Source: Escherichia coli (lineage in GTDB: Bacteria > Pseudomonadota > Gammaproteobacteria > Enterobacterales > Enterobacteriaceae). Taken from it: a stretch of DNA of 64,000 nucleotides. Shown piece by piece: positions 40,399-59,048 of the stretch. Each line of letters begins with the position of its first letter. Position 1 is the first letter of the stretch. The position numbers and the translations under genes are program-made. The notes beneath the pieces were generated by a model. That model was not told the origin of the DNA. It was given only the letters and a program-made list of their open reading frames with translations, and did not search any database. The stretch lies in assembly GCF_009931435.1 (NCBI RefSeq), contig NZ_CP043414.1; one strand, written 5' to 3'.

Positions 40399-41056
40399 AC
40401 TTAACTCCACTGTCACACTTAACTCCCTTTCCCTTATTGGAATGCAGAGAAATAATCCTCGAGAATATGATTTATCATGCATATAAAATAAGAAAAAGGA
40501 AAATGAGAAAAATTAGGAAAACATAAAGATACGGGTTCTTATAAAAACAGAACCCATTGCCGAGTAAAGAGTCATTTACCGCAGCATAATAATCCATAAT
40601 GTTTTTGTTGCGAAAACAATCTAATCATAACTACCGCGAATACTCAATCATCCACAAAATGGATTAAATGTGCTTTTTTAATAATTAATTTATATGTTTA
40701 ATGCATTAATTCTTAACATTAATAGAACAATAATATTCACCAAATGAATATCAAAAAATTAGCAAAACATATAATTCAATACAAATCATCAAGATAGGTT
40801 TTGTAACGCGTGCATTTTATCCCCCTTTTCCTCGTTGATTAGATGCAAAAATTTATTCTGAAATATGTCAACCGATGAAAAGCGTCGGTGGTTAAGCAGA
40901 AATTAATATCGCTTGTTTTAACCACCGCAGCACAATTAGCTAATTTGACGAATGCAGAACTCACTCTGGCGGAACGTTTTTGTTGCGTCAGGGTTGACAT
41001 CCGTTTTTGTATCCAGTAACTCTAAAAGCATATCGTATTCATCTGGAGCTGATTTA
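40399..41056. promoter_or_regulatory. AT-rich leuO-leuL divergent control region (H-NS/LeuO-controlled, promoter relay region)
   Basis: ~660 bp strongly AT-rich spacer between divergent leuO and leuLABCD, as in K-12; regulatory role from literature, sites not resolved. Confidence 0.5.
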
Positions 41057-41143
41057 ATGACTCACATCGTTCGCTTTATCGGTCTACTACTACTAAACGC
41101 ATCTTCTTTGCGCGGTAGACGAGTGAGCGGCATTCAGCATTAA
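41057..41143 (+). CDS. leuL: leu operon leader peptide, 28 aa, four consecutive CUA Leu codons
   Basis: Track ORF 40952..41143 trimmed to ATG at 41057: [28 protein letters not shown]; ggt cta cta cta cta aac read in sequence. Confidence 0.92.
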
Positions 41144-41165
41144 GCCAGCACGCAGTCAAACAAAA

Positions 41166-41193
41166 AACCCGCGCCATTGCGCGGGTTTTTTTA
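41166..41193 (+). terminator. leu attenuator terminator
   Basis: CCCGCGC-catt-GCGCGGG followed by TTTTTTTT between leuL and leuA. Confidence 0.85.
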
Positions 41194-43900: not shown

Positions 43901-45917
<2,017 letters not shown>

Positions 45918-45949
45918 TTTGTACACCGTCCGGCACTCAATCGCCAAAA

Positions 45950-46177
45950 AGAAAAAAGCCAGCAGATAATCACTGCTGGCGTGGCGATTAACACCAATAC
46001 TCAGTCACACATGATGTCCGCAAATCAGTAGTCAGAATGACTCCCCTCCCACTGCATCAGCTCTTCAAGCATGGTTAATCGTTGTGGGACGCTTAACCAA
46101 CGCAACCAGCACAACGTCGCTGTCGCGGTAAAATAGTGCTGATAAAACTGACGTATGGGGCACCTCCTTGCTTCATC
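45950..46177 (-). ncRNA. sgrS: Small RNA SgrS (glucose-phosphate stress)
   Basis: Minus strand begins GATGAAGCAAGGAGGTGCCCCATACGTCAG... and contains the conserved ptsG-pairing seed GTGTGACTGAGTATTGGTG followed by hairpin GCCAGCAGTGATTATCTGCTGGC + U-run; matches remembered SgrS. Ends are approximate. Confidence 0.85.
46025..46156 (-). pseudogene. sgrT: sgrT-homologous reading frame inside sgrS with start codon ATA instead of ATG
   Basis: Frame encodes (I)RQFYQHYFTATATLCWLRWLSVPQRLTMLEELMQWEGSHSDY, homologous to K-12 SgrT (MRQFYQHYFTATAKLCWLRW...); the codon aligned with the K-12 ATG is ATA (plus-strand tat at 46154-46156). No alternative in-frame start nearby. Confidence 0.55.
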
Positions 46178-46244
46178 GTTAGGAATTATTGACTTAATAT
46201 AGGGAAAATAAAATTGCTGACTTTTGCGCAGGAGTTCCCCTTTT

Positions 46245-47900
46245 ATGCCATCTGCTCGTCTGCAACAACAGTTCATCCGCCTGTGGCAATGCTGCGAGGG
46301 TAAATCGCAGGACACAACGCTCAACGAACTAGCGGAGTTATTGAGCTGCTCCCGTCGTCATATGCGCACCCTGCTCAATACCATGCAGGATCGCGGCTGG
46401 CTGACGTGGGAAGCGGAGGTCGGGCGCGGTAAACGCTCACGTTTAACATTCCTCTATACCGGGCTGGCGCTTCAGCAACAGCGAGCAGAGGACCTGCTGG
46501 AGCAGGATCGTATCGATCAACTGGTGCAACTGGTTGGCGACAAAGCGGCTGTGCGGCAAATGTTGGTTTCTCATTTGGGACGCAGCTTCCGCCAGGGGCG
46601 GCACATCCTGCGCGTGCTCTACTATCGTCCGTTGCGCAATCTGCTGCCCGGCAGTGCATTGCGCCGTTCCGAAACCCATATCGCCCGGCAAATCTTCAGT
46701 TCGCTAACGCGCATAAATGAGGAAAATGGGGAACTGGAAGCAGACATCGCCCACCACTGGCAGCAAATATCACCGCTTCACTGGCGCTTCTTTTTGCGTC
46801 CAGGAGTCCATTTTCATCATGGTCGTGAACTGGAAATGGACGATGTGATCGCCTCTTTAAAACGAATCAATACGCTGCCGCTTTATTCGCATATTGCGGA
46901 CATTGTGTCGCCGACGCCCTGGACGCTGGATATCCATCTCACGCAACCGGACCGCTGGTTACCGTTACTGCTGGGGCAAGTTCCGGCGATGATCCTGCCA
47001 CGAGAATGGGAAACCCTCAGTAACTTTGCCAGCCATCCCATCGGCACCGGTCCGTATGCGGTGATCCGCAACAGCACCAATCAACTGAAAATTCAGGCAT
47101 TCGATGACTTCTTCGGTTATCGCGCATTAATCGACGAAGTAAATGTCTGGGTTCTGCCAGAAATTGCCGACGAGCCAGCCGGCGGTCTGATGCTAAAAGG
47201 GCCGCAGGGCGAGGAAAAAGAGATTGAAAGTCGGCTGGAGGAAGGTTGCTACTATTTACTGTTCGACAGCCGCACCCATCGCGGGGCGAACCAGGCGGTA
47301 AGAGACTGGGTAAGCTATGTTCTCTCCCCCACCAACCTGGTCTATTTTGCCGAAGAACAGTACCAGCAACTCTGGTTTCCAGCCTACGGGCTGTTGCCGC
47401 GCTGGCATCATGCCCACCCGACGCATTGCGAAAAACCCGCCGGGCTGGAAAACCTCACCCTGACTTTTTATCAGGATCATATTGAGCATCGAGTGATTGC
47501 CGGGATCATGAAGCAGATTCTGGCAAGTTATCAGGTCACACTGAAAATTAAAGAGATCAGCTACGATCAGTGGCACGAAGGAGAGATCGAAAGTGACATC
47601 TGGCTTAACAGCGCCAACTTTACGCTGCCGCTGGATTTTTCGCTGTTCGCGCACTTGTGCGAGGTGCCGCTGCTCCAACACTGTATTCCGATCGACTGGC
47701 AAGCCGACGCCGCCCGCTGGCGCAATGGCGAAATGAATCTGGCGAACTGGTGCCAGCAACTGGTCGCCAGTAAAGCAATGGTGCCACTTATCCACCACTG
47801 GCTGATCATTCAGGGGCAACGCAGTATGCGCGGTCTGCGTATGAACACCCTCGGCTGGTTCGATTTTAAATCCGCGTGGTTTGCGCCGCCGGATCCATGA
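46245..47900 (+). CDS. sgrR: Transcriptional activator SgrR, 551 aa
   Basis: Track ORF 46224..47900 trimmed to ATG 46245: [44 protein letters not shown]... Confidence 0.93.
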
Positions 47901-47939
47901 TTGCTGGTTGATAACAAAATCACTACACTAACGCCGTTC

Positions 47940-48045
47940 TCAACGGGGTGCCACGCTGCCGCGTGCGCTGAGAAAATACCCGTCGAACCTGATCCGGATA
48001 ACGCCGGCGAAGGGATTTGAGGCTCCTTCTCAAGTCCTTTGCCAC
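47940..48045 (+). ncRNA. TPP (thi-box) riboswitch in thiBPQ leader (SroA region)
   Basis: GGGGTGCCACGCTGCCGCGTGCGCTGAGAAAATACCCGTCGAACCTGATCCGGATAACGCCGGCGAAGGGA read in sequence; contains the conserved CUGAGA and ACCUGAUC...GGGA thi-box elements. Boundaries approximate. Confidence 0.85.
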
Positions 48046-57573: not shown

Positions 57574-57578
57574 TTTAA

Positions 57579-57612
57579 GAGAAGCATCTGGGTAACAGGT
57601 GCTTCTTTTTTA
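57579..57612 (+). terminator. Intrinsic terminator after araD
   Basis: AGAAGCATCTG-ggtaac-AGGTGCTTCT (one mismatch in stem) followed by TTTTTTATTAT, 6 nt after the araD stop. Confidence 0.65.
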
Positions 57613-57619
57613 TTATCAC

Positions 57620-58063
57620 TCAGGCAGCAAGAAAAATTTCTGCCCCTATTCCCTCAATTAACAGTGCTTCTAATGAAGGGGCAATATACACCGCATCATC
57701 AAGATCTAAATTACCAAAACCGACGAGATATAAACCAAACCCCTCTTTTCCTTCGGCATAAAAAATCACTTTTCCGCCTTCATCATCGCCAATCGCCAGA
57801 GCGTGTGGAATATAATCCTGAATATGGTATGCGGCATTCATCTCACTACAGCCTGCGGCTCCCCAAATTCTGATATAAGACGTTGAATCCATCACTTTTA
57901 ATTCAACGTCTGCCATCAGAGTAATAAAGGTTAAATACTCATCAGGAATTGCAATGTGAAAATAATTTTTTATAAGTTGACCGAGTCCACTATAATCTAA
58001 TACGGGTTCCCATGACGCCAGCGTGAATTTTTCATGCAATTTAACAATAGGAAACTTACTCAT
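57620..58063 (-). CDS. Hypothetical protein, 147 aa, SUKH/SMI1-KNR4-like (putative immunity protein)
   Basis: Track ORF; ATG start overlaps upstream ORF stop (ATGA). Segments IPDEYLTFITL, ALAIGDDEGGKVIFY, GLYLVGFGNLDLDDAVYIAPSLEALL resemble the SMI1/KNR4 (SUKH-1) pattern. Assignment by eye only. Confidence 0.6.
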   Translation of the reverse strand: MSKFPIVKLHEKFTLASWEPVLDYSGLGQLIKNYFHIAIPDEYLTFITLMADVELKVMDSTSYIRIWGAAGCSEMNAAYHIQDYIPHALAIGDDEGGKVIFYAEGKEGFGLYLVGFGNLDLDDAVYIAPSLEALLIEGIGAEIFLAA

Positions 58064-58407
58064 TTCATCATCCTTTTCTTATACTTCTGGGGTAAAATAT
58101 CCGTTATAACGCCTTCACCTATAAATCCGGCTTCCCACAGCAGAAACTCACTGCCACAGCTGATCCACGGCATTACAAGTTCAGGATTTAAAAACGCCAT
58201 CTCAAGATTGTGTACCATTTCGCCAGGGTGAATCGTTTTTCCATAGCCGTCGATGTAAATCCGGCAGCCATAACCATATGAAGATAACTCATTAATCCCT
58301 TTAAAAAAGACAGGACAGCCGTAAAAACGGTTAGATGATAACAAAGGGCCACGATGCGATTTTTGCGTTGAAGAGTATAGTGTAATGGTAATCCGAACCT
58401 TTCTCAT
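58060..58407 (-). CDS. Hypothetical protein, 115 aa, no recognisable family
   Basis: Track ORF; ATG preceded by GGAGGG SD (minus strand TTCGGAGGGAAGATG); translationally coupled to the downstream SUKH-like ORF (4-nt overlap). Confidence 0.6.
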   Translation of the reverse strand: MRKVRITITLYSSTQKSHRGPLLSSNRFYGCPVFFKGINELSSYGYGCRIYIDGYGKTIHPGEMVHNLEMAFLNPELVMPWISCGSEFLLWEAGFIGEGVITDILPQKYKKRMMK

Positions 58408-58419
58408 CTTCCCTCCGAA

Positions 58420-58752
58420 TTAATTACGCTCTTCAATCAAATATGTCGTTTTATTAGTCCAGGCGATTATTTTATAGGGTCTGTTAATAATACCTTTCTG
58501 CGTATAATCAGCCATAATTTCTGATGGATACCAACCATAACCAAAGCAAAATAAAGCACCTACATTAATAAGCTCACTAATTACACTTAGTTTCTCATTT
58601 TCATTACTGGTATTTTTGCTAAATCGATCATTGTCGGCAGAAAAACCCAACCGTTGCATTTTTTCAACGTTATCATATCCGGTCACTACCGTTTCAATGA
58701 AATTATCACTTATGCTAACCACTATAATACAATCGCTCGGCAGTGTGTTCAT
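58420..58752 (-). CDS. Hypothetical protein, 110 aa, no recognisable family
   Basis: Track ORF; ATG start; 12-nt gap to next ORF; AT-rich upstream region 58753-58975 likely holds the promoter. Confidence 0.55.
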   Translation of the reverse strand: MNTLPSDCIIVVSISDNFIETVVTGYDNVEKMQRLGFSADNDRFSKNTSNENEKLSVISELINVGALFCFGYGWYPSEIMADYTQKGIINRPYKIIAWTNKTTYLIEERN

Positions 58753-58975
58753 TTCCCCTTGATCCTTCTAAAGTCATTTTTTCACCACAACAATGAATTC
58801 AATAGATATAATGAATATATGCAGCCATTTATATATAATTAGCATTACACCCTAATGCCTTAATATAACCCAAACAGAAATCGTCCGATAATCAGAAAAT
58901 GTAATCATTGAATAAAGCAGGAACCTTTTTATCGCATGAGAAACCGAAGATGGTTGATGCCGTTTCGTCAAACAT

Positions 58976-58995
58976 TACTGTACAAAATATCAGTG
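58976..58995. promoter_or_regulatory. LexA-box-like sequence upstream of polB (one mismatch to CTGT-N8-ACAG)
   Basis: TACTGTACAAAATATCAGTG: CTGT-N8-TCAG. polB is a known SOS gene; the K-12 box as I recall (CTGTATAAAACCACAG) is a perfect match, this one is not. Confidence 0.45.
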
Positions 58996-59001
58996 TTCAG
59001 T

Positions 59002-59034
59002 AAAAAACCAGGCTATAATCAAGCCTGGTTTTTT
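59002..59034. terminator. A-run/hairpin/T-run element just upstream of polB (hairpin loop contains TATAAT)
   Basis: AAAAAACCAGGCTATAATCAAGCCTGGTTTTTT; perfect 7-bp stem CCAGGCT/AGCCTGG. Could terminate transcription from either side and/or supply the polB -10. Confidence 0.55.
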
Positions 59035-59048
59035 GATGGATTTTCAGC

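Follow-up and report, generated by a model that had tools for sequence, protein, structure and literature searches.

The window, a stretch of 64,000 nucleotides of Escherichia coli DNA (contig NZ_CP043414.1), carries no setA between sgrS and leuD. This setA-less junction is an ordinary allele, found in about 40% of complete E. coli genomes and in other Escherichia species, and the absence of setA at the junction is already-known variation (PMC2760817, PMC6896753). The pattern very probably reflects an old deletion of setA within Escherichia, with two deeply diverged alleles and a K-12 setA-positive block that was exchanged horizontally. The comparisons with K-12, with other Enterobacteriaceae and with complete E. 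coli genomes are described below, together with the consequences for transcription at the junction.

Absence of setA from the leuD–sgrR junction

The K-12 record gives the order sgrR(−), sgrS/sgrT(+), setA(+), leuD(−). An earlier note on this DNA had given the same order, sgrR-sgrS(sgrT)-setA-leuD, and the alignment with K-12 does place setA between sgrS and leuD there. Its statement that setA is cotranscribed with sgrS in K-12 is documented as well, the cotranscription occurring through terminator read-through (PMC4509938, PMC9765468). Homology to K-12 breaks at window positions 45911/45952, which correspond to K-12 positions 78854/77592, and 40 unrelated bp in the window stand for 1,261 bp of K-12. 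The K-12 segment that is missing here includes setA with its ribosome-binding site, the last leuD codon and the GCCCGGTCAAATGACCGGGC hairpin, which lies between leuD and setA. There is no setA ORF directly past the sgrS terminator of the kind that makes up the K-12-type sgrS-setA operon.

The absence of setA, which the note had proposed for the sgrS–leuD interval, extends to the whole window. K-12 SetA gives no tblastn match in the 64 kb (best E 0.13), and the search of the window for setA leftovers by tblastn and short-word blastn returns chance hits only. The 40-bp filler, compared with the K-12 locus including the setA cassette, shows nothing beyond 8-10-mers. The direct convergence of sgrS and leuD is borne out by the ORF list and by the RF00534 match. 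The positions claimed for the leuD stop (45917) and the hairpin (45958-45980) hold, as does the length of the leuD-sgrR spacer, 327 bp (45918-46244). The distance from the leuD stop to the hairpin stem, put at ~30 bp originally, is close enough to the measured 40 nt; the SgrS 3' end lies 33 nt from the stop.

Anatomy of the leuD–sgrR spacer

The coordinates of the features are collected in Table 1. The RF00534 match of sgrS scores 226 bits, compared with a gathering score of 37, and runs over model positions 1-232, so that the gene is not truncated. The seed CATCATGTGTGACTGAGTATTGGTGT, in the 3' region complementary to the ptsG 5' UTR, is exactly the K-12 seed; ptsG itself is outside the window. 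The 5' end of sgrS at 46177 is divergent from sgrR, and the sgrR-sgrS intergenic region is nearly invariant in six Escherichia sequences. The Aconitase_C/LeuD Pfam domain is found for leuD on near-identical public contigs, and the SgrR_N and SBP_bac_5 Pfam domains are found on the identical SgrR protein in public contigs. The LeuD C-terminus reads ...FMR* in the window, Salmonella, Citrobacter and Kluyvera, and ...FMN* in K-12. The right part of the spacer between leuD and sgrS (CGCCAAAAAG...) matches the ancestral setA-sgrS intergenic region just past the sgrS terminator. The CCGTCCGGCAC in the same spacer may be what is left of the convergent hairpin that ancestrally lay between leuD and setA.

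Two further RNA elements are in their expected places, the leu operon leader at 41043-41192 (RF00512, 147 bits) and the TPP riboswitch upstream of thiB at 47934-48033 (RF00059, 66 bits). IAI39 has an espY2 effector gene between the TPP riboswitch and sgrR; the window has no espY2 there.

Table 1. Positions of the features at the leuD–sgrR junction and of the small ORFs between araD and polB
Feature	Position in window	Strand	Basis
leuD CDS, 201 aa	45312..45917	+	ORF list, K-12 alignment
setA-deletion scar, 33-nt spacer	45918..45950		junction alignments
Outer 8-bp inverted repeat, AATCGCCA (45939-45946) / TGGCGATT (45982-45989)	45939..45989		folds
SgrS intrinsic terminator: stem 45958-45965/45973-45980, loop 45966-45972, U-tract 45946-45957	45946..45980	-	terminator scan, fold
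sgrS sRNA gene, setA-less (CFT073/UTI89-type) haplotype	45951..46177	-	Rfam RF00534
SgrS base-pairing (seed) region CATCATGTGTGACTGAGTATTGGTGT	45991..46016	-	sgrS allele alignment
sgrT frame, 43 codons, start ATA not ATG (+ strand TAT 46154-46156)	46025..46156	-	alignments
sgrR-sgrS divergent promoter region	46178..46244		alignment, conserved across Escherichia
sgrR CDS, 551 aa, ATG at 46245	46245..47900	+	ORF list
araD-polB insert small ORFs	57620-58063, 58060-58407, 58420-58752	-	

Ancestral state and the probable deletion

Species were scanned with the SgrR of the window, one genome per species, and the 80 loci obtained, a set without E. fergusonii, E. marmotae and E. ruysiae, were then searched for setA by tblastn. 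setA lies between sgrS and leuD in 77 of the 80 Enterobacteriaceae species loci, including those of Citrobacter, Salmonella, Enterobacter, Leclercia, Klebsiella, Raoultella, Kluyvera, Trabulsiella, Atlantibacter and Buttiauxella. The three loci without setA are all from Escherichia (sp. E1V33, E. whittamii and E. albertii), and the fourth Escherichia locus of the set, that of sp. MOD1-EC7003, has it. The order sgrS-setA-leuD is therefore ancestral at the family level, and the state of the window is a loss.

Aligned across the junction, the window, UTI89, RMDEC465, E1V33, E. whittamii and E. albertii correspond base for base, which points to a single deletion event. The scar aligns with Citrobacter intergenic sequences on both sides of setA. 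The window retains the leuD ending of the ancestor (FMR*) as well as the stretch past the sgrS terminator (CGCCAAAAAGAAAAAAGCC, compared with CAGCCAAAACGAAAAAAGCC in C. amalonaticus). It has lost setA together with its ribosome-binding site, and also the convergent GCCGGATG...CATCCGGC hairpin of Citrobacter. The ancestral Enterobacteriaceae locus has setA downstream of sgrS and facing leuD, and a hairpin terminator separates these two convergent genes. We propose that ~1.25 kb were lost from it, comprising setA, its ribosome-binding site and most of the leuD/setA hairpin, and that the 33-nt scar was left behind. This deletion would have arisen once, either early in Escherichia or in a lineage from which recombination spread it, and the setA-less state would now be the normal one in E. 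albertii, E. whittamii, E1V33, the lineage of the window and ~40% of complete E. coli.

As to the order of events within Escherichia, we favour, with some reserve, a history in which setA was lost at the base of the Escherichia sampled and later re-entered the A/B1 lineage. K-12 setA and Citrobacter setA share ~80% DNA identity, about the same as K-12 and Citrobacter sgrR. This distance would fit equally well a donor at Escherichia-like depth and a long retention of setA within the genus. The 80 species loci point to no donor of the K-12 setA block; the best non-Escherichia match among them is Citrobacter, at this same ~80% DNA identity.

Two haplotypes and the K-12 block

Members of the setA-less group share 93-99% identity in sgrS, even when E. 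coli is compared with E. albertii, and the setA-positive K-12 and MOD1-EC7003 share 98.7%. Between the setA-less and setA-positive groups the identity is only 85-88%. The sgrS of the window is 99.1% identical to that of UTI89 and 86.3% identical to that of K-12. Unlike sgrS, the genes leuB and leuC and the 5' half of sgrR follow the species relationships.

The edges of the block are sharp. Between K-12 and UTI89, the 3' 100 nt of sgrS hold 27 mismatches, and the rest then has ~2 per 100. On the other side the final 73 bp of leuD hold 17, compared with ~2 per 100 beyond, although this flank is weak evidence because that stretch is hypervariable throughout Escherichia (84-90%). The K-12 setA-positive block spans from ~73 bp inside the leuD 3' end to approximately nt 130 of sgrS, and its edges are 23-27% diverged between the setA-positive and setA-less alleles. 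Since the sgrS boundary is near nt 130, the SgrT C-terminus differs between the haplotypes (…WEGSHSDY vs …WDDRNSES) and the seed is identical. Between K-12 and MOD1-EC7003 there are ~1.5 mismatches per 100 bp in the block and 5-6 per 100 in the flanks, so the setA block has a younger common ancestor than its surroundings. The block therefore behaves like a cassette swapped by homologous recombination, which makes the K-12 SgrS/SgrT chimeric relative to other Escherichia. In a reading more modest than the antisense cross-talk taken up below, the 3' third of this chimera could have come with a horizontally acquired setA cassette, and the setA-less form would be the native Escherichia SgrS.

It is conceivable, if rather doubtful, that both alleles are an old Escherichia polymorphism, in which K-12 inherited setA vertically and did not re-import it and the setA-less allele spread by recombination. 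K-12 setA is as far from Citrobacter as other K-12 genes are, as such a history would have it. At the 3' end of the setA-less sgrS, E. coli B2 and E. albertii share 96-97% identity, compared with 88-94% for the flanking genes, and this high identity could reflect later spread and not purifying selection alone. The K-12 terminator resembles that of Salmonella, and the setA-less terminator resembles that of Citrobacter. However, in the short flanks the alleles have diverged by 17-27%, more than the most distant species in the Escherichia sample, and the contrast of ~1.5% in the block with 5-6% in the flanks between K-12 and MOD1-EC7003 indicates that the block moved recently. All three other named Escherichia species sampled also lack setA.

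Frequency of the setA-less allele in E. coli

Of 5,426 complete E. coli genomes, 5,399 gave a match to a 1.6-kb query spanning the junction. The match is one contiguous piece with 95-99% identity in 2,152 records and two pieces split by setA, with 90-95% identity, in 3,247. A 131-nt probe across the junction detects the setA-less junction in 2,157 of the 5,426 genomes, and K-12 setA is present in 3,241, nearly all with an identity of at least 99%. The two counts together account for 5,398 of the 5,399 genomes having the locus, which makes the two states essentially exclusive. Because the counts add up, setA-less complete E. coli genomes have no setA elsewhere, at the sensitivity of megablast. 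The earlier note had viewed the absence of setA as a peculiarity, but it is a standard allele in ~40% of complete E. coli.

UTI89, O157:H7 F7508 and IAI39 are annotated as sgrR-sgrT-leuD, without setA; we take UTI89, O157:H7 and IAI39 to represent phylogroups B2, E and F, respectively. K-12, REL606 and O103:H2 12009 are setA-positive examples, presumably of phylogroups A and B1. Several of these differences have been described. An SgrS identity of 88% between K-12 and CFT073/O157:H7 and a mutated start codon for sgrT in O157:H7 were reported by Horler & Vanderpool 2009 (PMC2760817), where setA is also drawn in a per-species synteny figure. SetA is listed as acquired by the A/B1 sublineage (González-Alba et al. 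2019, PMC6896753).

Such an acquisition by A/B1 is a fair description within E. coli, and it would agree with a setA-less state that is ancestral for enterics, setA being a foreign insertion in the K-12 lineage. That history is contradicted at the family level, where 77 of the 80 loci have setA at the exact position, and we consider it very improbable. It is just as hard to believe that setA was relocated elsewhere in the source genome. The SetA search covered 64 kb of the source, in which there is no SetA-like sequence, and in complete E. coli genomes the setA-positive and junction-positive counts add up to the genomes with the locus, so that setA-less genomes hold no relocated copy. A recent strain-specific deletion or an assembly artefact, suggested by nothing beyond the comparison with K-12, is refuted, practically with certainty, since the same junction occurs elsewhere: 2,157 complete E. 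coli genomes carry it, as do three other Escherichia species and two independent assemblies that are 99.95-99.99% identical to the window.

Terminator and transcription at the junction

The SgrS hairpin has an 8-bp stem with 6 G-C pairs and is followed by TTTTTTCTTT on the minus strand. From the sequence, this Rho-independent terminator has the long U-tract associated with Hfq binding of SgrS. An outer repeat (AATCGCCA/TGGCGATT) encloses both the hairpin and the U-tract, and an extended helix is predicted on both strands, with z of -3.4 and -5.5. All setA-less alleles have the outer repeat, which carries one mismatch in E. albertii and may be fortuitous.

The earlier note had assigned the sgrS terminator to both convergent transcripts, and the two strands do not bear this out. 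On the plus strand the hairpin is followed by GTGGCGATTAAC, with no T-run and at most three T in any 8-nt window; the A-run precedes the hairpin, and the scan reports a terminator on the minus strand only. The minus strand has the hairpin plus UUUUUUCUUU and the plus strand the hairpin and then GUGGCGAUUAAC, which is not the sequence pattern of a bidirectional terminator, where an A-tract before and a U-tract after a GC-rich hairpin give both strands a hairpin with a U-run. The extended outer helix is followed on the plus strand by AACACCAATACTC, also without a U-run. The scan finds no plus-strand terminator after leuD, a negative that is not decisive because the stringent scan also misses the leuD hairpin of K-12 itself, with its short tail TTTCC. 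Two promoter-like sites on the plus strand, at 45941 and 45988, are at chance level and were rejected.

The leu-sense RNA from 45980 to 46117 has a C/G ratio of ~1.9, near the 95th percentile of the window. This composition would be compatible with Rho-dependent termination of untranslated leu read-through. In the arrangement that we propose, SgrS would still end at its own strong intrinsic terminator, and SgrR-driven read-through would yield no setA mRNA and would run antisense into leuD. The leu operon, having lost its own hairpin terminator, would probably end by Rho-dependent termination or by inefficient pausing at the hairpin, and leu 3' ends would be expected in the C-rich stretch antisense to sgrS.

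Many convergent gene pairs of E. coli have a bidirectional terminator between them. A role of the sgrS hairpin as a bidirectional intrinsic terminator, also ending the leu operon transcript, is nevertheless unlikely here. The idea is not absurd, since the deletion probably removed the leu operon's own hairpin. The sgrS hairpin is the only strong hairpin between leuD and sgrR, and with the ancestral leuD/setA hairpin of Citrobacter and K-12 deleted, leu transcripts meet it 40 nt past the stop. On the other side, a U-run follows neither the stem (GTGGCGATTAAC) nor the outer helix (AACACCAATACTC), the scan call is confined to the minus strand, and the downstream C/G of ~1.9 fits Rho-dependent termination instead.

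The loss of both the hairpin and setA also raises the prospect of convergent or antisense cross-talk between the leu operon and sgrS in setA-less Escherichia, which we regard as a long shot. If it occurs, leu transcripts made under leucine limitation (de-attenuated) would extend through sgrS in antisense, and read-through from sgrS would likewise enter leuD in antisense. Branched-chain amino-acid synthesis would then be linked to the sugar-phosphate stress response, and K-12 cannot show such a link.

The sgrT start codon

The 43-codon sgrT frame of the window is intact but lacks a canonical start, and the same ATA is found in two independent public assemblies. After the ATA there is no in-frame ATG, GTG or TTG until close to the C-terminus. 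The start codon is ATT in O157:H7, so the changes are independent and the sgrT start was lost at least two times in setA-less Escherichia.

Comparison with known loci

The sgrR-sgrS-setA locus of K-12 is the SgrS/SgrT glucose-phosphate stress system, as described in those passages of PMC4021124, PMC4509938 and PMC9765468 that cite Vanderpool & Gottesman 2004 and Sun & Vanderpool 2011. The window shares with it the divergent sgrR and sgrS, the conserved promoter region and a full-length SgrS, whose base-pairing region is identical and whose intrinsic terminator is strong. The neighbors are also the same, the thiBPQ TPP riboswitch on one side and leuABCD on the other. Unlike K-12, the window has no downstream setA, so terminator read-through cannot make setA mRNA. 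The 3' ~95 nt of sgrS (SgrT C-terminus, spacer and terminator) are of the other haplotype, with 86% identity overall, sgrT starts with ATA, and leuD ends in FMR* rather than FMN*.

The window has the same setA-less junction and the same sgrS haplotype as CFT073, UTI89 and O157:H7 (PMC2760817). Its spacer is identical to that of UTI89 at 125 of 131 bases, and, as in O157:H7, sgrT has no ATG. It differs from these strains in its divergent lineage, which is ~95-96% identical to UTI89 and to K-12. The leuD 3' end (FMR*) and the sgrS terminator sequence are like those of Citrobacter. In contrast to Citrobacter, Salmonella, Enterobacter and Klebsiella (leuD > < setA < sgrS), the window has lost setA and the GC-rich leuD/setA hairpin.

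These comparisons caution against reading genomes with K-12 as the sole reference. The sgrS-setA operon, which has been used for studies of sRNA terminator read-through (PMC4509938, PMC9765468), is present in ~60% of complete E. coli genomes only. UTI89, O157:H7, IAI39 and the other Escherichia species sampled (E. albertii, E. whittamii, E1V33) do not have it. In setA-less strains SgrS stands alone as an sRNA, and both its 3' end and the SgrT C-terminus are different. [quoted passage not shown] The recombination boundaries inside sgrS and leuD make a tidy case of allelic cassette exchange, and no new kind of system is involved.

Source lineage and other features of the window

Across 40 kb the window shares ~95-96% identity with K-12 and with UTI89 alike, and the best complete-genome match, RMDEC465, is mosaic relative to it, with 91-100% identity. 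The identity level and the mosaic match indicate that the source is a divergent Escherichia lineage close to the species boundary, and perhaps a cryptic clade. Over the 7.7 kb surrounding the locus, the window is 99.95-99.99% identical to two public assemblies, GCA_036246705.1 and GCA_030511265.1.

Between araD and polB there is a low-GC (34-42%) insert of ~1.45 kb (57574-59048), which is absent from K-12, UTI89 and RMDEC465. An NCBIfam search of its three small ORFs (Table 1) gave no hits. The ORF at 57620-58063 has a weak Pfam match to SMI1/KNR4 (SUKH-1), with E of 7e-4, and the three ORFs may be orphan toxin-immunity genes.
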